Positions 625-64,000 of a stretch of 64,000 nt of DNA are shown here, piece after piece (positions within the stretch are counted from its first letter, which is position 1; each line of letters begins with the position of its first letter). The DNA is taken from positions 4,947 to 68,946 of the IMG/VR virus record IMGVR_UViG_3300035703_000076. One strand, written 5' to 3'. The stretch is from a virus. A model generated the notes under the pieces. It did no database searches and was not told the origin of the DNA. It saw only the letters and a program-made list of their open reading frames with translations. The position numbers were made by a program, and so were the translations under genes.

Positions 625-674
625 ATTTTGTTGGATATGTGCAAGTTTATGGCACATGTCTGGTAGTTATAGGA
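625..674 (+). other. attI-like leader/recombination site of cassette array A
   Basis: 34/44 nt identical to 61424-61467, ending ATGTCTGGTAGTT; directly precedes the first cassette (GTT at 666). Confidence 0.7.
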
Positions 675-676
675 AA

Positions 677-850
677 TTAAAAAATTGAAGTGAGCCTTTT
701 CCAAAATGACTTCCATCTAAATTTAATTATCCTGTCACAAATCATACACCTATCAGTTGTGTAGTGTTCGGTATTTGTGTAAATAATGTTTCTAAAATCA
801 CCACAATCGTGTTTAGCGTGGGTGTATGCTTTGTCTTGTTCTTTATTCAT
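677..850 (-). CDS. cassette A1 gene, 57 aa, possible Zn-binding (HxC...CxxC)
   Basis: Hand translation MNKEQDKAYTHAKHDCGDF...DRCMICDR...KRLTSIF*; below the ORF-track size cut-off; fills cassette 1. Confidence 0.7.
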   Translation of the reverse strand: MNKEQDKAYTHAKHDCGDFRNIIYTNTEHYTTDRCMICDRIIKFRWKSFWKRLTSIF

Positions 851-869
851 CGTATCAATTTTTTAACTA

Positions 870-970
870 TCCTATAACAGCACCTAACAAAAATGGCTGC
901 ATAAGCATTGGTTTTCAATTCAGAAGTTCTTACAAGCAGCCACTTCTGTTAGCCGCAAAACGTTATGTGC
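870..970 (+). repeat. attC-like hairpin A1
   Basis: TCCTATAAC...TAACAAAAATGGCTGC / GCAGCCACTTCTGTTA...AAAAC-GTT. Confidence 0.85.
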
Positions 971-974
971 CATT

Positions 975-1256
975 TTAAGGCGACACGTAATAAGGGTTTG
1001 AAGCAATCTTTATGTAGCTTTTAGCATACAAATTGAATCTACTTCCATCAACCCAATAAACAGCATGTTGCGTGCTTAACATATTTACAGAATCGCATTC
1101 TATTTGTGCAGACGTAGTCCAGTTATCATCATCTGTTTTTGCTATTATGTAAGCACGTTTTGGTTTTGGTTCTAACTCACACGAAGAAAAAACGGCACAT
1201 AACAACAAACTTGCAAAAGCAAGGGTTAATCGGTTAATTGAAAATTTGTAATTCAT
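975..1256 (-). CDS. cassette A2 gene, predicted lipoprotein (93 aa)
   Basis: Hydrophobic N-terminus ending FSSC (lipobox-like); start codon lies inside hairpin A2. Confidence 0.75.
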   Translation of the reverse strand: MNYKFSINRLTLAFASLLLCAVFSSCELEPKPKRAYIIAKTDDDNWTTSAQIECDSVNMLSTQHAVYWVDGSRFNLYAKSYIKIASNPYYVSP

Positions 1257-1329
1257 ATTACATTTGTTTTAAGTTGAAATTTTGTGCTTCTAAATACTTG
1301 CCTTCGCAAGTTTGCAAAACGTTAGTGGC
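1194..1329 (+). repeat. attC-like hairpin A2
   Basis: GGCACATAAC-A-ACAAACTTGCAAAAGCAAG / CTTGCCTTCGCAAGTTTGC-AAAAC-GTT. Confidence 0.85.
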
Positions 1330-1333
1330 AAGT

Positions 1334-1549
1334 TTAAAAACCGCACTTGACACATTTTATATCCTTTTTATCCATTGAAGTGAATCCAATTGGTAATTCT
1401 GGAACATCGCATATACATTTAGATTCTTCGTTGAATATTTTATAATCATTACAAATTTTCTGCAATTCGTCTTTCTCTATAAGAAAATCACCTGTAAATT
1501 GGTCAATTCTTAGTTCATATTTTTGGATTAATTTATCTATTAGTTTCAT
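1334..1549 (-). CDS. cassette A3 gene, 71 aa, C-terminal CxC...CxxC
   Basis: ORF fills cassette 3; Cys motifs. Confidence 0.7.
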   Translation of the reverse strand: MKLIDKLIQKYELRIDQFTGDFLIEKDELQKICNDYKIFNEESKCICDVPELPIGFTSMDKKDIKCVKCGF

Positions 1550-1579
1550 ATTTTAATTTATAAATGTTAATAAAAACCA

Positions 1580-1712
1580 GCCACTAACACTCGCTATAAG
1601 TAATGGCGGGTTCAGTGGTAATTGTTGTGTTGTGCTTTCTATTGTCATTTGTTGTATTTTGATAGTGAGTAGTTCCAATACCGCCACTACTCATAGCGGA
1701 AACGTTATAGGG
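1580..1712 (+). repeat. attC-like hairpin A3
   Basis: GCCACTAAC-ACT-CGCTATAAGTAATGGCGG / CCGCCACTACTCATAGCG-GAAAC-GTT. Confidence 0.85.
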
Positions 1713-1742
1713 CATTTAAACTGTTTGGCACATAATCTTAAA

Positions 1743-8492: not shown

Positions 8493-9185
8493 TTAAAGTA
8501 AATTTTCTTGTTTGTAATAGTTTATTAGATACCACACATTTTGAGGTGTAAACTCCTTCCCATCGGTTGTTATGTAGCCGCTTCGTTTGTAGCCTAAGCG
8601 ATTAAGGTTGTAGCTAATTTCCTTTAGAAGATAGTCGGGGTTGGCGGCAATATACATTTTGATGTACTCGTATATCTGAACTTTGTTGTTATCCTCCCAT
8701 ACGGCTCTTTTCCTTGCTATTCCTCCATTAACTGCGGCTTCATAGCTTAGGTTTTCAGGTTTTCCAAGTTTCACTCCATTGGATTTCTTTACTTGCAATG
8801 CAGCCTTTGTTCGTTTGCTTATCAGTTCCCTTTCGTGCTGTGCCATCGTTGCGAAGATGCCAAGGGTTAGGGTGTTGAGGTCGGGCAAATCTAAACAAAC
8901 AAAGTTAACTGATTCCTTCAAAGTAAACAAAAAAGATACATTTCTACTTAGTCTGTCTAACTTAGCTATGAGCAAAGTTGCTTCTTTTTGTTTACATTCC
9001 TTTATAGCTTGTTCAAGTTGAGGTCGCTTGTCCTTCTTACCCGATTCAACTTCTGTAAACTCCTGCAATATACGGCCATTATTTTTGGCGTATAAGTTAA
9101 CAGCTTGCTTTTGTGCTTCCAAACCTAAGCCTGATTCGCCTTGTCGCTTTGTTGATACTCGGTAGTATGCAATGTAGGTTTTCAT
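8493..9185 (-). CDS. serine recombinase (resolvase/invertase family)
   Basis: YYRVST..Q, G.K..RP.L and KLDRLSRN catalytic motifs; ERELIS.RTK helix E. Confidence 0.92.
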   Translation of the reverse strand: MKTYIAYYRVSTKRQGESGLGLEAQKQAVNLYAKNNGRILQEFTEVESGKKDKRPQLEQAIKECKQKEATLLIAKLDRLSRNVSFLFTLKESVNFVCLDLPDLNTLTLGIFATMAQHERELISKRTKAALQVKKSNGVKLGKPENLSYEAAVNGGIARKRAVWEDNNKVQIYEYIKMYIAANPDYLLKEISYNLNRLGYKRSGYITTDGKEFTPQNVWYLINYYKQENLL

Positions 9186-20012: not shown

Positions 20013-20246
20013 ATGGAAAAATTTTATCATGCACTTTTTGCGTATTTTACCGTAAGCTCTGCGCTTGGCATACTTTACATGATTTGGAAAACATGGATTT
20101 TAGATGGACAATATCATAAAGACCCTTATCTTAGAAGGGATTGGTACTATTTTGTATTAATAGGATGGTTAATCACTATTCCTTTAATTTTAATAACCCT
20201 CGTTGCCATTGTTGTTGACGACATTAAAAAAATAAAATGGAAATGA
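20013..20246 (+). CDS. two-TM membrane protein
   Basis: Two hydrophobic segments. Confidence 0.65.
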   Translation: MEKFYHALFAYFTVSSALGILYMIWKTWILDGQYHKDPYLRRDWYYFVLIGWLITIPLILITLVAIVVDDIKKIKWK

Positions 20247-32317: not shown

Positions 32318-33466
32318 ATGAAAAACAAAGTATTACCAGCAGGCACTTACATCGTTGAGGCCAACTCTTCTGAACTTACAGAAGGAACACACGTTATCCC
32401 AGGTGTATACAGGGATGGAACAAAAACCGTATATCTTCTTACTGATTTTGGAATTTCAGACGAATCGCCCGAAATAGGTTCAGGCAAAACCAAATGGAAC
32501 TTGGAGCTAAAAAGGGGCTATGAATCGCATCCTTTTGAAATTACCATCACGGATATGGATGATGACAATGAGCGTTCAAGAAAAGAATCGTTCATTTTAG
32601 CTTTGCGTAGACATAGCCATTGCAACAATCCTGAAAACTCCAACTACAAATTTGTTACTCCATCGTTTAAGGTAATCAACAAGGCTGATAAAATCAATGA
32701 GCGTGTTGGAATTATCAAAGGCAAAGGAAGTGTATACAACTACATTAGCGACCTTACCTTTGAAGAATTGCGTGACCTTGAATTTGCGGAAGGCGGAAAT
32801 GCTATTGGGAAAACATACGATGACCTTTTTGTGAAATGGGCTGATTTTGACACAAGCCCTGCAATGATTGACCCTGAAAACTTTATGAGGAAACAAAAAG
32901 GAAGCGACAGGGCTATTGAGGTTATTGTAAACAAAGCAATCAGGCTTCTTATTGTTGAACAAAGGGATGGTTACTATTATATTAGCGGTGAACTGATTGG
33001 TAAATCGGTTGCCGATGTAATTAACTATTGCAAAGAAAACACCGAGAAGTACGAAAAGCATATTCTACCAATGGTGAGAAAGTCGGATGTTCTTTTGGAA
33101 ACTCCTGAAAAATCTGCAAGAATTGTTGCCAACCCAAACGAGGAAGCAAAACAAGAGCAAGCAAAAAGGGATGAATTACGCAAGATTTGTTTTCAAAAAG
33201 GAATCCATTACAACCATACTTGGACTTCTTCTAAGTTAGAGGCTTTGATTCAGGAATATGACAATGCTCCTGAGAATAGCACTTTAAGAAAAGAGGCTAA
33301 GATTATGGCTAAGGAAAACGAAAAGGTTGGCGAAAAAGTAAGGATGAAAACTGTTGTTGCCTATTTAAAAACCTACAATGTTCCCCACGTTGAGGGCGAC
33401 ACGTTGGAGAATTTAGAAAAGGCAATGAAAAATCATCAGCTTGAAAAAGCCGCCGCAGCACTTTAA
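32318..33466 (+). CDS. conserved virion-module protein of unknown function
   Basis: 382-aa ORF between head and neck genes. Confidence 0.75.
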   Translation: MKNKVLPAGTYIVEANSSELTEGTHVIPGVYRDGTKTVYLLTDFGISDESPEIGSGKTKWNLELKRGYESHPFEITITDMDDDNERSRKESFILALRRHSHCNNPENSNYKFVTPSFKVINKADKINERVGIIKGKGSVYNYISDLTFEELRDLEFAEGGNAIGKTYDDLFVKWADFDTSPAMIDPENFMRKQKGSDRAIEVIVNKAIRLLIVEQRDGYYYISGELIGKSVADVINYCKENTEKYEKHILPMVRKSDVLLETPEKSARIVANPNEEAKQEQAKRDELRKICFQKGIHYNHTWTSSKLEALIQEYDNAPENSTLRKEAKIMAKENEKVGEKVRMKTVVAYLKTYNVPHVEGDTLENLEKAMKNHQLEKAAAAL

Positions 33467-38800: not shown

Positions 38801-40745
38801 GCAAGTTTATATTGTAGACCCTTCTCAGCCGAATAAGGGTACAACAAATTTTGACCTTGCACCTTCTTGGTTTTTTGACTTAAATCAACCCTTATGGACT
38901 TGGGGTAGCGACCCTATACAAAACGGTTATTTAGATACAATTTGCTATGGTCAATATTACAGGCCAAAAGCTTACGATATAAATAATCCCGAAGCAAATA
39001 AATACGGAAGTTTCAAGCAAACAGTAAGTTATTATACGGGATTTTCTTTAAACGTACAACAGTATTCAACATTTGCAGGTCAACAATTTCCTACAAATAT
39101 TGTTCAAGTTTATGGCGGAGATGTTTACAATCAAAAGTATTTTCACAAAGTAAGAATACCTGTTTCAACCGACCAATCTGGTTTTGTTGACACGACTTAT
39201 TGGGTTGGCGGAGGCGGAGCTTTAATTTACTATTCACAAAATAGGCACAACGCAAGAATGATTAGGGACGTGAATGGTGATGGCGATGCTCAATTTCCTA
39301 TTTCAAATTATGGAGGATGGTTAAGCCCTCAAAAGTCTGCTCGTCCTGTATATGACCCTACCTATGATTATTGGACAAGTGTTAAACAAAAATTAGGCTA
39401 CTCAACTGATGTTCGGGACTATGCCGCCCCATCCCGAACTGTTTACTCCGCTTTAAAACCTCAAGACGGAACGTATGATGGTTATAGGGACTTTCAGCCA
39501 CTTGACTTCCTTGATGTTCCCCTTACGGATGGGGAAATAACCCATCACGAAAAGGTAAATGGCGAGTTGTTTATACAGCAAGTTAAGAAGTGGCTTAAAT
39601 ACTTCTTCAACACAAGGGGTGAACTTCAAGTTACAGGCAATTCAACTTCAATTGCAATTGGCGATGGAAGCGTTCTTTCTCGTCCACCAATCGAACTTTC
39701 TGCCTATGGTTCAAGAAACAAATGGTCTTTTATAAAAGGCAAAAGCGTTGGAGGGCAAGAAGTTGTTTACATATTTGATTTGACCTCAAAAGCTATCATC
39801 AGATACGCTGGGGATGGCACAAGGAACATTTCTCTTGAAAACAATATTGACAGCTTTATACGCAATAATACACGCTTTTTGGATGGTGTTGATACTCCCG
39901 CTTGGAAGTATGGTATTGCGGCGGTGTGGAACGAAAAAAGAAAGGTTGCCATTTGGACTGCAAGGGCTATTAACCCAACAAAGCCGATATGGTTTGTAAC
40001 ACTACCTTATCAAGTTGGCGACATAGTTTGGTTTGGCGACAACAATACAGATGCAGGATGGGAACAGTTGCCTGCGTTTTTTGAATGTATACAAGCAAAC
40101 AATGGTTCTTTATCCAACAAGCCATTAAGTGGTGCTGATTGGCAAGACTATTGGGTTCAGTTACCTTTGTCCGACAATAGGGTTTATAATGTTTGGACGT
40201 TAGAATTTAACGAACTAAAGAATGGATTTAGTACCTTTGGCACTCCAAAACCTAAAATCTATATGCCATTTAGAAATACCGTTCTTACAGGCGACCCAAG
40301 GGTTAGTTTTAGCTTGCAGTATGAACAAGATATTTACGAGCAAGACAATGGCGAAAAGGGTGTTTGGTATGATTACAGAACTGGTGAGGGGCTTTATGCC
40401 GATGGTTTTATAGAGCTTGTTTTTAATTCACAAACGCAGGATATTAAACATTATTTAGCCCTTCGTGTAAATAGTTTGATAAAACCTTTTAAATTTGAAC
40501 TTTTTACGAAAAAGAATCAAACTTTCATGTTGGCTTCGGATGTTGAAGAAAGGGAGGATTTGTTCTTTACTGCTGTAAAAAATGACTCTAATACGCCGCC
40601 GTATATTGGTCAAAACGACCAAGATACTTCTGCTATTTTTGGTCAATATGTAAAAATTAAAATGTACTTTGAAAAAAGAACAAGGCAATATTTAACTGAT
40701 TTGATGGTAAGGTTTAAATTTAGTCCAAGAAACTCAAATAAGTAA
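35829..40745 (+). CDS. tail stabilisation/muzzle protein (P22 gp10/crAss-type)
   Basis: About 1640 aa; N-terminal LN.D......GDY.NAL.I, YWTD..N; C-terminal TL.FNE..N.F..F and G.Y.... Confidence 0.7.
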   Translation: MPEQSVVPIGNLNLDVDIARIKDGDYSNALDITFITDEGGSSVSAENQYGNKFSFKLGSVVPQVKKFVINMPSSTIPNDIHSATVFRSNGLPWFSFNFYYLSTQAATILDFESEFISEINVAASSPPFPFQSSLSGGVYSIWLAQDGLDWNILIDGVPQTIIQEPVGKPGIFKPIGSSYIDNDLFVWSCVTDDEPLKVDVVNSQQLGQMIVVNTVPFANPYIGLQHVYISGTNNGMDGAWLAQNSVGSPFSFLLIGSQWTVNSSGGTILIGTEAIGELGVAQYTEGTDSYTYTRLARSRKFNFVSKHQIDARPTERNIRSTNFYWTDNYNQQRCMYYKGAYIQDGFISYFNPLGLYEYQTLNEEIRSQVIANFKVQFVSQDSTGGAVKAGNHRYVVRARSGGRNKTEISLPSGLVNVYAQPNSNLALGSEVGTVTPKINNLLITNIPPGVFEEIELIDILYSSSFGLISATVVNIFPLGIDDIELKVSHTGNEAGSFGIDSTELQYITEIYKTVKSNQVIDNRMVNTNVTLYEELDLSEFFKTWKHSIIRQTINDSGNFFSRFDIQYNSNSIGNLCYPSKANLAYGEYQNPSNVNSNMSLMLNETYRFMAVCKRKDNGQLTSAFWIDDICVNNRGVNENALGLPITVNRRVATVADADIVVPASGAGSIGFQNVIFAYDSGALPGSPLIYNYGQIYYAGHGLQTGDTVFVANFTGAGAVANGIDVGAYFTVSVISSDTFNLNGWVNAGNVFSVGLTSYWATAVAPSGNLPQNYGWNNLMVYSYGVEFSGFDLAFQIDGKPFYELFDEIYIFRADCVPEILYTGVLVPSVSGRIYVPEYKFGHGDGGLLTDFFDAQGSHPYQSGGSTDQEAYNSGDYTSYPAQGTGGADYEKYTAQCAFYSPDHDMVGNNVDRYFASDIILNYGPMSFIRSSNGLGKIESGGKNPWHLDTAMELAWLQRPQYPNIMQNFTGAGFVEKGGVYTNQGFPNYVKKQVYIVDPSQPNKGTTNFDLAPSWFFDLNQPLWTWGSDPIQNGYLDTICYGQYYRPKAYDINNPEANKYGSFKQTVSYYTGFSLNVQQYSTFAGQQFPTNIVQVYGGDVYNQKYFHKVRIPVSTDQSGFVDTTYWVGGGGALIYYSQNRHNARMIRDVNGDGDAQFPISNYGGWLSPQKSARPVYDPTYDYWTSVKQKLGYSTDVRDYAAPSRTVYSALKPQDGTYDGYRDFQPLDFLDVPLTDGEITHHEKVNGELFIQQVKKWLKYFFNTRGELQVTGNSTSIAIGDGSVLSRPPIELSAYGSRNKWSFIKGKSVGGQEVVYIFDLTSKAIIRYAGDGTRNISLENNIDSFIRNNTRFLDGVDTPAWKYGIAAVWNEKRKVAIWTARAINPTKPIWFVTLPYQVGDIVWFGDNNTDAGWEQLPAFFECIQANNGSLSNKPLSGADWQDYWVQLPLSDNRVYNVWTLEFNELKNGFSTFGTPKPKIYMPFRNTVLTGDPRVSFSLQYEQDIYEQDNGEKGVWYDYRTGEGLYADGFIELVFNSQTQDIKHYLALRVNSLIKPFKFELFTKKNQTFMLASDVEEREDLFFTAVKNDSNTPPYIGQNDQDTSAIFGQYVKIKMYFEKRTRQYLTDLMVRFKFSPRNSNK

Positions 40746-60951: not shown

Positions 60952-61039
60952 AAGTATAACCCTGTCGGTTGTTATTGACGTATCCACTTAGACAGGCTGC
61001 CCCTGAAGTTTCTTTGATTACTTTGGGGGTTTCTTTTTT
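60952..61039 (+). ncRNA. candidate sRNA of about 88 nt
   Basis: TAACTTTG box at 60940; stem CCTGTC/GACAGG enclosing GTTGTTATTGAC; terminator 61000-61039; no ORF. Confidence 0.5.
61000..61039 (+). terminator. rho-independent terminator
   Basis: CCCCTGAAGT...ACTTTGGGGG plus T tract. Confidence 0.75.
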
Positions 61040-61122
61040 GTGGAAGGGGTGGAAAAAACAAAAGCCACCGATTAAAGTGGCTCCTGTCCTGTTTACCTAA
61101 TTACCTGTGGCAAAGGTAGGGA

Positions 61123-61413
61123 TTATTTCACTTCAAATTTAACTTTCTTTCCATGTTCAAACATCGTGTTTTGCTTAAACCTACATTTGCCCGATTTTCC
61201 GTTGCAAGGTTGGTATGCAATACAGGATTTTCCGCATGCCTCGTGTTCAAATATTTCCTCTGCTGCCCTACACCAAAAATACTTGTCGTTATTTTCTGGA
61301 ACCGCTTCAAATAGTTCAATTTCGGTCAATCCTTGCTCTTTGGCATCGGTTAAATGATAGTCCAATGTGTAGCACATTTCCGATAGTTCTGTAAGAAAGT
61401 AGTATTTAGGCAT
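61123..61413 (-). CDS. Cys-rich hypothetical phage protein
   Basis: FWC...CG..C..Y.P.NG..G.CR motif. Confidence 0.75.
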   Translation of the reverse strand: MPKYYFLTELSEMCYTLDYHLTDAKEQGLTEIELFEAVPENNDKYFWCRAAEEIFEHEACGKSCIAYQPCNGKSGKCRFKQNTMFEHGKKVKFEVK

Positions 61414-61423
61414 GGTTTATTTG

Positions 61424-61474
61424 ATTTTGTTAGGTATGTGCCATAAAGTGGCTTATGTCTGGTAGTTACCTGCC
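61424..61474 (+). other. attI-like leader/recombination site of cassette array B
   Basis: 34/44 nt identical to 625-668; GTT at 61465. Confidence 0.7.
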
Positions 61475-61738
61475 ATTTTCCCAACGACCGATAACCCAAT
61501 CAGGAACAATTCCATCATTAGTTCTATTGGCTAAATCTTCATCCCAACTGAAATTCACGACTATCTTTTCATCTGAACTCCAATCCCTACCAAAATCTTC
61601 AATAGTCAATTCAGCATCGTATTTCGCCAATAATGCTTTTAACTCGTTTTGGAATTGTTCTACCTTATCCTTACCCGACAAAAAAACGGCAGGTAACACG
61701 GGTTTGGCAAAATTGCCGTTTTGTTCTTCTATTAACAT
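61466..61738 (-). CDS. cassette B1 gene (90 aa)
   Basis: Starts in the hairpin loop; its stop TAA coincides with the GTTA core. Confidence 0.75.
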   Translation of the reverse strand: MLIEEQNGNFAKPVLPAVFLSGKDKVEQFQNELKALLAKYDAELTIEDFGRDWSSDEKIVVNFSWDEDLANRTNDGIVPDWVIGRWENGR

Positions 61739-61819
61739 CAGTTCTTAATTTTAAACATTTGTACTTCTATTTAGCTTTTCGGTTCGGCAACTTCGCCAAA
61801 CCCGATACCGTTAGGCACA
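61688..61819 (+). repeat. attC-like hairpin B1
   Basis: GGCAGGTAAC-A-CGGGTTTGGCAAAATTGCCG / CGGCAACTTCGCCAAACCCG-ATACC-GTT. Confidence 0.85.
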
Positions 61820-62083
61820 ATTAAGCAACATACCTTCGAGTTCAGAAATAACCACAATCCATTGCTCACTTTCAATGTTCATTGCTTCATCCATTTGTCC
61901 TTTATCTGCAAAATCTTTACACAAATTAGCTAAATCAATCGCTGCGATTAAATTGTCTTTATTTGATAACATCCCTGTGTATGGGTTGTGGTCTGATGAT
62001 TTCAACATCAATTCTACTATTTCTTTCGTTTTCATAATTTTAACTGTGCCTAACAGCGTATATGTGCAATACGCTTTCAGCAT
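61811..62083 (-). CDS. cassette B2 gene (90 aa; alternative start 62035)
   Basis: Its stop TAA coincides with the GTTA core. Confidence 0.75.
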   Translation of the reverse strand: MLKAYCTYTLLGTVKIMKTKEIVELMLKSSDHNPYTGMLSNKDNLIAAIDLANLCKDFADKGQMDEAMNIESEQWIVVISELEGMLLNCA

Positions 62084-62143
62084 TTGTTGTTAATAATTAA
62101 GTTTATCGTATGCGTACTGCACATATACGCAAACCCGTTACCT
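62045..62143 (+). repeat. attC-like hairpin B2
   Basis: TGTGCCTAAC-A-GCGTATATGTGCAATACGC / GCGTACTGCACATATACGC-AAACCC-GTT. Confidence 0.85.
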
Positions 62144-62386
62144 AATCTTCACCATCACCCTATCCCCTACTTGCCTTACAAACTGCCCTTTGATGATAAG
62201 GACTGAATCTTTTCCGACCTTACCGAAGTTGTAGCCGATTTGGATTTGATGGTTAATGATTGGCTTTGACTGCGAGTGGTTCTTGGTGGGAAGAGTTCCT
62301 ATCCATAGCAAAATCAAACAGGCAATTGCAATGTAAATGCCTAACAAAAGTTTATAAGAACTATCCATCCTACACCTCCTTTTCAA
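62138..62386 (-). CDS. small membrane-anchored protein (start probably MDSS)
   Basis: N-terminal TM. Confidence 0.65.
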   Translation of the reverse strand: MKRRCRMDSSYKLLLGIYIAIACLILLWIGTLPTKNHSQSKPIINHQIQIGYNFGKVGKDSVLIIKGQFVRQVGDRVMVKIR

Positions 62387-62678
62387 TGATTAACCTTTCA
62401 ATTTGCTTGACCTTCATTTCCCTTATTGTTGGGTTTTCCGAAACTATGGTTTTGAAGTTGCTGGAAAATTGATAATTGGTAAACTCGTTAAAAAAATTAA
62501 CATATTTTTCAATGGCTCTAAATCCAGCTTGAAGCATATCATTTTCTGTTTGCTCAATTGCAATTTCTGCATCAATACCTTCCAGCCTATCCCTTTCAAT
62601 CTTCGCAACCTTCAATATCTGGTCATAGTGGCAAGGTTGGCAGCGTACTTGGATGCGTTTGGTTCTTGTTTGCTTCAT
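62370..62678 (-). CDS. hypothetical protein, paralogue of 18962-19285, RHH-like N-terminus
   Basis: Shared C-terminal domain. Confidence 0.7.
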   Translation of the reverse strand: MKQTRTKRIQVRCQPCHYDQILKVAKIERDRLEGIDAEIAIEQTENDMLQAGFRAIEKYVNFFNEFTNYQFSSNFKTIVSENPTIREMKVKQIERLIIEKEV

Positions 62679-63199
62679 GCTTTGTCCTCCTTCAAAGTTA
62701 CTTGAACACCTTTAACCTCCGATGCAATGGTAAGTAGTTCGGATATGGTAAGTTGCTCGGTTCTGATTGGTTTTGCGGTCGTGTGGATAGAAAATCCTGT
62801 CAATGCTGATGGATTTTTTGCAATAAAATAATCCTTTCCATCGTCATTGAATTTAGCAACAACGATTCTTTTGGTAAATATATCAGCATCCCATACTTTC
62901 ACCTCCATTTCGCAAGGAAATTCAACATCTTCCTCCAAGCCAAGTTCGGCATCGGTTGGGATGTGGTCAAAGATTTGGCATTGCAATTTTTCTGCAAGGT
63001 TTCTATTTAAACAGGAAAAGATATGATTAGCTATACCATAATACCTAAAATCTTTAAGTGCCTCTTTAGTGTTTATGTAGTCAAATCCAATATACTGCTG
63101 AATCAATCCTTTTTCGTTCATTTTTTCCCAAAACCTTTTCAGTTCAACCGCAAACTCTGGCGATTGATTCTCGATTACGACGTTGTTGATTTTTTTCAT
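62675..63199 (-). CDS. hypothetical protein
   Basis: ORF, operon packing. Confidence 0.7.
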   Translation of the reverse strand: MKKINNVVIENQSPEFAVELKRFWEKMNEKGLIQQYIGFDYINTKEALKDFRYYGIANHIFSCLNRNLAEKLQCQIFDHIPTDAELGLEEDVEFPCEMEVKVWDADIFTKRIVVAKFNDDGKDYFIAKNPSALTGFSIHTTAKPIRTEQLTISELLTIASEVKGVQVTLKEDKA

Positions 63200-63201
63200 G
63201 G

Positions 63202-64000
63202 CTAAATATTAAAGAATTTACAAAATTCAACGTTACCATATTGGCTCTTGGTTTTTTCGGCCATTTCCAAAATAGTGAACTTTTGTGGCTTAATTCCAGC
63301 CGATTCGATAAACGATTTTACGCCTTGCTGACAAGCGCCTGTAATCACTCGGTAAACCTCAATACATTTATCGTAGGGCAGTTTTTCGTTTACGTCCATG
63401 CCTTTAAAATCGTCCTTATTCCTTTCAGCAATTTTGTAAATCAAATCCGCCTTAGCATCCTTAATTGTGTCTCCATGTGCATATTTGCCGTTTCCATCAG
63501 TTACAAGAAAATACTCGTTTTTTTTGCCAACGTCTTTAAGTCTCCAAACATTACCTTTTTTCGATATTACCTCCGAAAATTTACCATCGGCCAAGACAAA
63601 ATCGCCATTTCCTTTGCCCCATTTCATAAATGGGATATTTTGATTTTGTAAAATTGGCAATTGTGCTTTTACTTTATCAGGTAGCGTGCAGCCTCTGAGG
63701 TAGAGAGAGCCGCCGATAGTAGTAGGTAGTACCAAGTTATCAGGTAGCGTGCAGTCTTCGAGGTAGAGATGGCCGCCGATAGTAGTAGGTAGTACCAAGT
63801 TATCAGGTAGCGTGCAGTCTTCGAGGTAGAGATAGCCGCCGATAGTAGTAGGTAGTACCAAGTTATCAGGTAGCGTGCAGCCTCTGAGGTAGAGAGAGCC
63901 GCCGATAGTAGTAGGTAGTACCAAGTTATCAGGTAGCGTGCAGCCTCTGAGGTAGAGATAGCCGCCGATAGTAGTAGGTAGTACCAAGTTATCAGGTAGC
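63202..64000 (-). CDS. LRR-like repeat protein (5' end outside the window)
   Basis: 21-aa repeats LPDNLVLPTTIGGxLYLxxCT; C-terminal AHG.T...A..DL..K / YR.ITGAC..G...F domain. Confidence 0.85.
   Translation of the reverse strand, partial: LPDNLVLPTTIGGYLYLRGCTLPDNLVLPTTIGGSLYLRGCTLPDNLVLPTTIGGYLYLEDCTLPDNLVLPTTIGGHLYLEDCTLPDNLVLPTTIGGSLYLRGCTLPDKVKAQLPILQNQNIPFMKWGKGNGDFVLADGKFSEVISKKGNVWRLKDVGKKNEYFLVTDGNGKYAHGDTIKDAKADLIYKIAERNKDDFKGMDVNEKLPYDKCIEVYRVITGACQQGVKSFIESAGIKPQKFTILEMAEKTKSQYGNVEFCKFFNI
63674..64000. repeat. 63-bp tandem repeat, at least 5 copies
   Basis: Units start at 63674, 63737, 63800, 63863, 63926 and 63989. Confidence 0.95.

Follow-up and report, generated by a model that had tools for sequence, protein, structure and literature searches.

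Introduction

Integrons, defined by the integrase IntI, are known mainly from Proteobacteria. T4-type phages carry cassettes of another kind, in which small early genes headed by a stem-loop with expression signals are shuffled between related phages. Here we examine a 64,000-nt stretch of DNA from a freshwater phage, called the window below (bases 4947-68946 of the 68,946-bp viral record IMGVR_UViG_3300035703_000076; positions are those of the window), and within it a short array of two single-gene cassettes, array B, in the right-hand block of early genes (61424-62146). Array B is a real mobile cassette array, a variant of the integron kind, and the second instance in this phage besides the three-cassette array A. 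We consider it likely that its two cassettes form part of an integron-like gene-capture system common to Flavobacterium-type bacteria and their phages, for which the enzyme would be supplied in trans.

The attC site of integrons is a bottom-strand hairpin with R and L boxes, cleaved between A and C of AAC; its central spacer has 5-6 nt on each arm, and extrahelical bases lie on the arm opposite AAC (Nivina et al. 2016). From 10,705 phage genomes, Qi et al. (2023, Front Microbiol 14:1091391) reported 17 CALINs (clusters of attC sites lacking an integrase), Polaribacter phage P12002L being among the carriers; an attC site there was predicted by HattCI plus Infernal, and they treat the sites as classical attC served by IntI. 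The present phage system is like those CALINs in being integrase-less, in occurring in lytic phages and in having DNA methyltransferase cargo.

Anatomy of array B

On the + strand the order is a leader ending CTGGTAG, cassette B1, cassette B2 and a fixed gene. The parts, with the companion array, are:

61424..61465, +, leader, attI-like junction ending GGTAG before the TTA of B1
61466..61810, +, cassette B1: TTA-N6, antisense open reading frame (ORF), N6-TAAC box, folding site, final G61810
61469..61738, -, B1 gene, 90 aa, ATG within the site loop, codons 1-17 encoded by site plus box
61688..61813, +, B1 recombination site, alpha type: R'' box, A, arm, loop, arm, ATACC, G-TTA junction
61811..62137, +, cassette B2, final G62137
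61814..62035, -, B2 gene, 74 aa from the ATG at 62035
62045..62140, +, B2 recombination site: R'' box, A, arm, loop, arm, AAACCC, G-TTA junction
62138..62386, -, fixed flanking gene, 82 aa, membrane-like, its stop codon being the TTA of the last junction
625..1713, +, companion array A, leader plus three cassettes (667-962, 963-1321, 1322-1704), same rules

As in classical (especially sedentary chromosomal) integrons, this is an array of single-gene cassettes with imperfectly folding sites that end in AAC...GTT, and TAAC...GTTA hairpins with R'' and R' boxes are found at both B sites and at the three A sites. The general layout is N6-TAAC, 1 nt, an arm of 19-20 bp, a loop, the second arm, 5-6 nt and G. 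An earlier note on this DNA had described B1 and B2 as units with self-complementary ends, with arms of 19-20 bp and with a spacer of 1 nt on one side versus 5-6 nt on the other, and all of this is borne out at both cassettes. The start box of B1, X_B1 GTTACCTGCC (61465-61474), is the exact reverse complement of GGCAGGTAAC (61688-61697), matching at 10 of 10 positions, and X_B2 GTTAGGCACA (61810-61819) is likewise a 10/10 reverse complement of TGTGCCTAAC (62045-62054). The B1 arms (61699-61718 and 61785-61804) are 20 nt long and 90% complementary around a loop of 66 nt; those of B2 (62056-62074 and 62112-62130) are 19 nt long and 95% complementary around a loop of 37 nt. The spacer is a single nucleotide on one side (61698 in B1, 62055 in B2) versus 5 nt (61805-61809) and 6 nt (62131-62136), respectively, on the other. 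Classical integrons differ in this respect: of the two arms of the folding strand, the AAC arm here has 5-6 nt and its partner 1 nt. Three consecutive genes had also been said to end with TAA exactly on the core; the three minus-strand ORFs at 61466, 61811 and 62138 do so, the TAA stop of each being the TTA of a G-TTA junction.

The leader is 34/44 identical to that of array A (625-668), with the final 13 nt the same in both, and its 14-nt end is found twice in the genome, one copy ahead of each array. The 82-aa gene is not a third cassette: 62147-63300 holds no complement to its first 10 nt at up to two mismatches. The B1 and B2 proteins match no family in PHROGs, the only collection they were scanned against. 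Rfam contains no family for CALIN-type attC sites, and a search of 61000-62600 against it (E<=10) returned no relevant family, NsiR1 alone appearing at chance level (E 5.8).

The own-end rule

Sites of this layout are rare by chance. We scanned the whole 68,946-bp genome with a strict pattern (TAAC, 0-2 nt, an arm of at least 14 nt, a loop, an arm, 3-8 nt, GTTA) and obtained five + strand sites, exactly those of arrays A (three) and B (two), and one weak site on the - strand; 20 dinucleotide shuffles gave a mean of 0.2 sites, both strands combined. A looser layout scan of all fetched loci (247 kb) found 110 sites in the window's + orientation versus 34 in the opposite one, the commonest spacers being 1 nt and 5 nt.

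The box of each cassette is matched to that cassette's own start. All five window cassettes have own-end matches of 9-10 nt, which the earlier note had thought unlikely to be chance, as is upheld by the non-self pairs below. The pairing spans 12 positions, X = GTTA-N6-AT against X' = AC-N6-TAAC, with a 6-nt cassette-specific barcode inside the stem; stem position 11 is A.C on the + strand, so G.T on the - strand. Where classical integrons have an R stem of 7 bp, this one has 10-12 bp including the barcode. Among 40 non-redundant cassettes from other viral contigs, each lying between two sites, the own box is complementary to the cassette start over at least 8 nt in 25; in 18 the match is exactly 10 nt long. 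Against the GTT side next to it, the same box gives at least 8 nt in 1/40, and non-self pairs reach at least 8 nt in 38/1560, with 11/1560 non-self pairs from other contigs at 9 nt or more. The rule is followed more closely in two Flavobacterium chromosomal arrays that we describe below (21/21 and 9/11, that is 30/32, against 0/32 for the adjacent-box control), and both chromosomal failures trace to one spurious site.

Orthologous boxes also change together. Where the window has GTTAGGCACA/TGTGCCTAAC at B2, the contigs L047 and L051 have GTTAGGCGCA/TGCGCCTAAC, a compensatory double change in which the pair is A/T in the window and in L052 and G/C in L047 and L051.

Exchange of cassettes as exact units

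A search for the cassettes as exact-boundary units in other contigs, which the earlier note had proposed as a check, found both. B1 is present whole in L012, with homology running from 61813 to 61462 at 85%, and in L009 and L011 homology to B1 runs from 61778 to 61465/61472. B2 is present whole in L044 (94%) and L047 (93%), from 62133 to 61809, and in L051 (88%), from 62143 to 61809; in these three contigs the neighbours of B2 are unrelated to the window's on both sides.

In a sister phage (L003), whose flank gene is 92% identical, we find the window's leader, then three other cassettes, then the fixed gene, which is the opposite of what had been named as telling against mobility, namely that relatives always carry the same genes. 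The boxes of these three cassettes are GTTAGCACCA/TGGTGCTAAC, GTTATAGGGC/GCCCTATAAC and GTTATCGGTA/TACCGATAAC, each with a 10/10 own-end match, although the third cassette is without a right arm. The leader motif GGTAG-TTA is common to arrays A and B and L003. Since a scan of viral contigs with the leader pattern matched the sister contig and no other, the leader is lineage-specific. The 82-aa fixed gene is kept in L003, L004, L107 and L108 with differing content behind it: L108 has other cassettes there and L107 none, and between the flank genes of L004 both the leader and the hairpins are missing.

Contigs from three other studies (X2, X4 and X5) diverge from the window at 61468, 61694 and 62135/62136; of these points, 61468 is the leader plus GTTA and 61694 is the TAAC of the B1 site. 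One X2 contig covers 61791-62135 and differs in sequence beyond both ends. Joints from 61477 to 62132 in X2 and from 61468 to 61694 in X4 were not taken as empty alleles, the intervening sequence not being known. No weight is placed on window parts that the contigs of X2, X4 and X5 leave uncovered, nor on the small word shares of runs X4-X20. The single shared mechanism that the earlier note had proposed for the two loci thus has the support of recurrence as exact units, of a leader followed by other cassettes in L003 and of compensatory change.

We also considered an alternative phasing in which each hairpin belongs to the upstream gene, and rejected it on three grounds: the first cassette varies behind an unvarying leader, B1 and B2 each stay together as hairpin plus gene although the neighbours on both sides differ, and chromosomal arrays run ORF then site.

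In four contigs (L042, L043, L045 and L046) the B2 protein makes up the N-terminus of a longer ORF, and neither site nor boxes are present. From their sequence, these longer ORFs may be the non-cassette source form of the gene.

The alpha site and its cargo

The B1 site belongs to a widespread family that we call alpha. Copies of the segment 61694-61813, with 82-94% identity, stand ahead of unrelated genes in more than 25 viral loci, and homology stops at TAAC and GTTA. The site is 78% identical to one that separates two methyltransferase genes in Flavobacterium phages available in culture (mumin, filifjonk and tooticki groups), among them mumin6-1. Many of the alpha-linked genes are DNA methyltransferases, judged by motif.

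All 24 distinct genes linked to an alpha site elsewhere have an ORF (52-321 aa) starting at the loop ATG, which reads MLIEEQNGNFAKP or a close variant and continues into the cargo. This count comes from 27 listed ORFs, less B1 of the window itself, a match at window position 20243 that is due to chance and a non-alpha site in L027. Going by these reading frames, the alpha site is predicted to supply the start codon and the first 14 codons of B1-type genes. Sites of the B2 type do not conserve the loop ATG, and the start at 62035 lies behind the box. A 90-aa frame for B2 from 62083 is probably unused: the loop ATG is ATA in L044, and the 62035 start is kept in all relatives.

Sites of the same general form are present in P12002L, with the layout AGTGCCTAAC, A, a 14-nt arm, loop, arm, AGCC and G-TTA, and with genes on the opposite strand. 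Outside its methyltransferase cluster, P12002L (L056) also has CAAC...GTTG-core hairpins between small early genes, at 32801-32922, 39126-39242 and 39519-39707.

A possible objection is that the exchange is no more than homologous recombination at conserved hairpin modules, as with the promoter-stem-loop cassettes of T4-type phages, and involves no site-specific enzyme. An alpha site that is 82-98% identical across many unrelated genes would suffice for such exchange, the phage encodes a YqaJ-type exonuclease and NinB, and the hairpin and gene modules of B1 have been swapped separately. Homologous exchange is also the route proposed for the T4-type cassettes, but those are not known to have AAC/GTT cores, complementary ends or a linked recombinase. 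Furthermore, adjacent cassettes have unrelated hairpins (B1 versus B2, and the three types found with B1, see below), and the objection leaves unexplained the complementary 6-nt barcodes with their compensatory change, the fixed geometry of 1 versus 5-6 nt, and the constant linkage to one recombinase clade to which we turn below. We regard homologous exchange as an improbable account of the array.

Folding strand and cargo orientation

The mismatches within the arms indicate which strand folds. On the TAAC...GTTA strand of the viral sites, A.C (124) and C.A (15) make up 139/316 arm mismatches, and G.T or T.G 52; at the chromosomal sites A.C (63) and C.A (4) make up 67/159, and G.T or T.G 28. 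Because A.C mismatches predominate on this strand, it is the opposite strand that is predicted to fold, with G.T wobbles. Preference for one strand (here predicted) is a likeness to classical integrons; the use of G.T wobbles in place of bulged bases is a difference from them. Calculated DNA folding energies are in the same direction, at -20.1 kcal/mol (- strand) versus -15.85 kcal/mol (+ strand) for B1 and -17.68 versus -16.78 kcal/mol for B2.

Phage cargo is antisense to the site in 5/5 window cassettes and in 40/41 from related viral loci, which puts the coding sense of the genes on the folding strand. The phage arrays are unlike classical integrons in this, and in that the site may encode the 5' end of the gene; the chromosomal arrays are conventional in 28/32 cassettes, where the folding strand is antisense to the cargo.

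This contrast bears on whether the hairpins might be RNA elements only (terminators, processing sites or translation controls of an early operon), their end matches being incidental. The better-folding strand in the phage is indeed the mRNA sense strand, and the B1 hairpin encloses a start codon. However, the wobble bias tracks the site and not the orientation of the gene, and in the chromosomes it is found on the strand antisense to 28/32 cassette genes; this favours a folded DNA strand over an mRNA structure. An RNA function would also have to accommodate homology that breaks exactly at TAAC/GTTA and own-end complementarity that reaches across whole genes of 0.2-1.7 kb. We find an RNA-only role scarcely credible.

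A Xer-like recombinase linked to the sites

When species-representative genomes were searched with the B1 protein, alpha sites came to light on four Bacteroidota assembly contigs. One of these, the Flavobacterium contig L071, encodes a 347-aa tyrosine recombinase that ends 27 nt before an 80-bp site, and after that site comes an alpha-site methyltransferase cassette that obeys the end rule. The B1 site and the L071 chromosomal site are about 95% identical, judged by eye. The recombinase scores 213.7 with the XerA/integron-integrase model (cut-off 220) and about 180 with XerC and XerD; on TIGR02249 it scores 193.7 (cut-off 265) in two stretches that leave model positions 179-237 unmatched. Since it is below every curated cut-off and skips positions 179-237, we take the enzyme to be Xer-like, without the IntI insert.

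Such enzymes are common in sampled Flavobacterium genomes. Homologues (E<=1e-40) are found in 90/151 sampled genomes of the genus of L071, and many of the contigs that carry them are long (hundreds of kb, up to 3.5 Mb). Many homologues also lie at contig ends, as would be expected if repeated sites break assemblies. Among the best 30 loci, 23 had at least 600 nt of 3' flank and could be evaluated, and 15 of these have a co-oriented site 3' of the recombinase, six of them within 120 nt of the gene end. In two Flavobacterium chromosomes, L103 and L104, the 20-kb stretches 3' of the recombinase have 22 and 12 sites; these arrays, directly 3' of the recombinase, amount to at least 22 and 12 cassettes, and their sites have the geometry of B1 and B2 (0-2 nt on one side, 4-6 nt on the other). 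Loci L061, L067, L068 and L072 show no array, and L070 only distant sites; L105 and L106 were left aside. A tyrosine recombinase at the end of an array, with at least 20 cassettes, is as in classical integrons; it is unlike them in that the recombinase is without the IntI insert and that the phage array itself is without a recombinase. The Flavobacterium recombinase points into its array, co-oriented with the sites and with most of the cargo, as in the integrons of Treponema (Cury 2016).

Relatives of the recombinase are also borne by phages. Of 195 viral stretches we kept 80, in which the enzyme has 39-47% identity. Sites at these loci number 218 on the 5' side of the recombinase in divergent orientation versus 22, 20 and 13 in the other three classes, and of the 80 loci, 53 extend 1500 nt or more upstream; one or more sites lie there in 49 of these 53, two or more in 42. 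The viral recombinase gene is adjoined by junctions such as ATAG-TTA, resembling the GGTAG-TTA of the window. These phage-borne platforms, with the recombinase divergent from the array, are unlike the Treponema elements, which also differ in having true IntI. Phage and chromosome share both sites and cassettes: a chromosomal alpha site is 98.5% identical to one in the viral contig L035, and L027, L031 and L032 match an entire chromosomal cassette at 73-78% identity, the match covering exactly the site and the gene.

This recombinase has to be weighed against the view that array B is a classical CALIN, whose attC sites would be acted on by a genuine integron integrase (IntI) encoded by the host. 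The AAC/GTT ends, the R'/R'' stem, the own-end complementarity and the preference for one strand are all features of attC; in P12002L, which has sites of the same layout around methyltransferase genes, one predicted attC site is reported to have recombined with attI1 under IntI1, through the bottom strand only (Qi et al. 2023). Against this, none of the four Bacteroidota assemblies holding alpha sites has a protein above the TIGR02249 cut-off, and the recombinase that does adjoin an array falls short of it (193.7 versus 265), skips positions 179-237 and is matched equally well by the XerA, XerC and XerD models. The spacers are unlike the canonical 5-6 nt per arm, there are no bulged bases, and complete integrons are almost absent in Bacteroidetes (Neron et al. 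2022, IntegronFinder 2.0). Service by a true IntI therefore seems unlikely to us. The available part of Qi et al. (2023) makes no mention of Flavobacterium, of an Xer-like recombinase, of a leader, of the barcode rule or of site-encoded start codons. In the literature we found no description of Flavobacterium arrays with an Xer-like recombinase, which is not proof that none exists.

A further candidate for moving the cassettes is the phage's own small serine recombinase (230 aa, 8493-9185, - strand), or some unrecognised phage enzyme. The protein has a PF00239 Resolvase domain (E 1.6e-29), and the sister phage, with the same leader, has one too. Serine recombinases act on duplex sites, however, and such action would not explain the strand-biased wobble pairs. 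PF00239 is found in neither of the two complete cultured array phages, mumin6-1 and P12002L, and in 1/5 records overall; these two cultured phages have neither a serine nor a tyrosine recombinase. We consider a phage enzyme of this kind very unlikely to be the mover. As a separate observation, no other lysogeny gene was seen in the phage.

Proposed mechanism and its difficulties

Returning to the integron-like system that we favour, we propose that a cassette is a unit that would be cut out and pasted in by a site-specific recombinase. The folding site, of about 95-125 nt, would have as its foot a 10-12 bp stem between the cassette's own ends once the cassette is circularised. Insertion, at the leader or at another site, would take place by crossover inside the GTTA/TAAC tetranucleotide, probably between A and C on the folded strand by analogy with integrons, and the folded strand would be the - strand of the window, here the sense strand of the genes. 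Because insertion splits the foot, each cassette would start with the complement of its own N6-TAAC box. Classical integrons are alike in this, in that crossover in a shared core makes the cassette start complement its own inverse core; for array B the crossover can be placed in the core, not at an exact bond. Since the phage encodes no tyrosine recombinase, the enzyme at work would be a Xer-like tyrosine recombinase supplied in trans, whether from the host or from a co-infecting phage.

Several observations weigh against this interpretation. The exact empty allele joining G61465 to T62138, for which the earlier note had suggested looking, was not found among five relatives of the 82-aa gene or in the X-run contigs, and no excised cassette circle was seen. 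PF00589 has no match in the 68,946-bp phage genome, and the complete site-bearing phages mumin6-1 and P12002L have no such recombinase either. No site lies in the flank examined at 8/23 evaluable chromosomal recombinase loci, and 15/40 viral cassettes miss the own-end rule at 8 nt; the viral loci, moreover, were collected via relatives of B1, B2 and the recombinase and are not an independent sample. Finally, the B1 gene (82-93% identical) occurs with three unrelated hairpin types (L007, L008, L010, L013, L009, L011 and L012, compared with 61685-61813), which is unexplained by a single crossover point.

The B1 homology begins exactly at GTTACCTGCC, and so hairpin and gene modules appear to be exchangeable separately. 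In two of the B1 homologues, L011 (about 2761-2772) and L013 (about 2735-2745), the 3' boxes, GGCTTATAAC and GGCGTATAAC, no longer complement the 5' box; judging from the sequence, this looks like the product of exchange within the box. Together with the three hairpins of B1, these boxes suggest second-core exchanges or other cassette-forming routes that lie outside the simple model.

More broadly, and with less conviction than we have for array B itself, we lean toward recognizing a distinct class of integron not described before. Its Xer-like recombinase, without the IntI insert, would be common in Flavobacterium chromosomes and Bacteroidota phages; phages lacking the enzyme would keep leaders as landing pads and borrow the host recombinase to swap accessory genes, many of them anti-restriction methyltransferases, and special cassettes would have a site that doubles as start codon and first codons. 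Because many alpha-site cassettes are DNA methyltransferases, the arrays may serve as a stock of anti-restriction genes that can be changed quickly.

If this is true, a parallel Xer-like system in many sampled Flavobacterium genomes and in phages widens the picture of integrons, offers a natural intermediate step in the descent of IntI from Xer-type recombinases, a long-standing question, and gives lytic phages and their hosts a direct trade route for single genes. Cultured material exists, in the mumin-group Flavobacterium phages with hosts LMO6 and LMO9 and in Polaribacter phage P12002L.

Genome setting of array B

The record has a direct terminal repeat of 93 bp. Structural genes are on the + strand, and small early genes are on the - strand, at both window ends. 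On the leader side array B is flanked by one further gene:

61123..61413, -, Cys-rich gene, 96 aa

The 96-aa and 82-aa genes and the 174-aa and 261-aa neighbours have no family in Pfam or PHROGs (10 proteins were in the PHROGs scan), and the 102-aa neighbour has a sub-threshold RNase_T match only. In the relatives from runs X2, X4 and X5, 61087/61090 is joined to 61428/61431 via 16 other letters; because these contigs join the terminator region to the leader, we regard the 96-aa Cys-rich gene as an indel among relatives. The terminator-like hairpin itself, GCCACCGATTAAAGTGGC, lies at 61040-61095, between the convergent late and early blocks. At the far end of the window, from 63669 to 64000 and on into the record start (L069), there is a 60-bp tandem repeat within a - strand ORF (63202..63999) that crosses the record end; its repeat units, LPDNLVLPTTIGG(S/Y/H)LYL(R/E)(G/D)CT, look leucine-rich-repeat-like.

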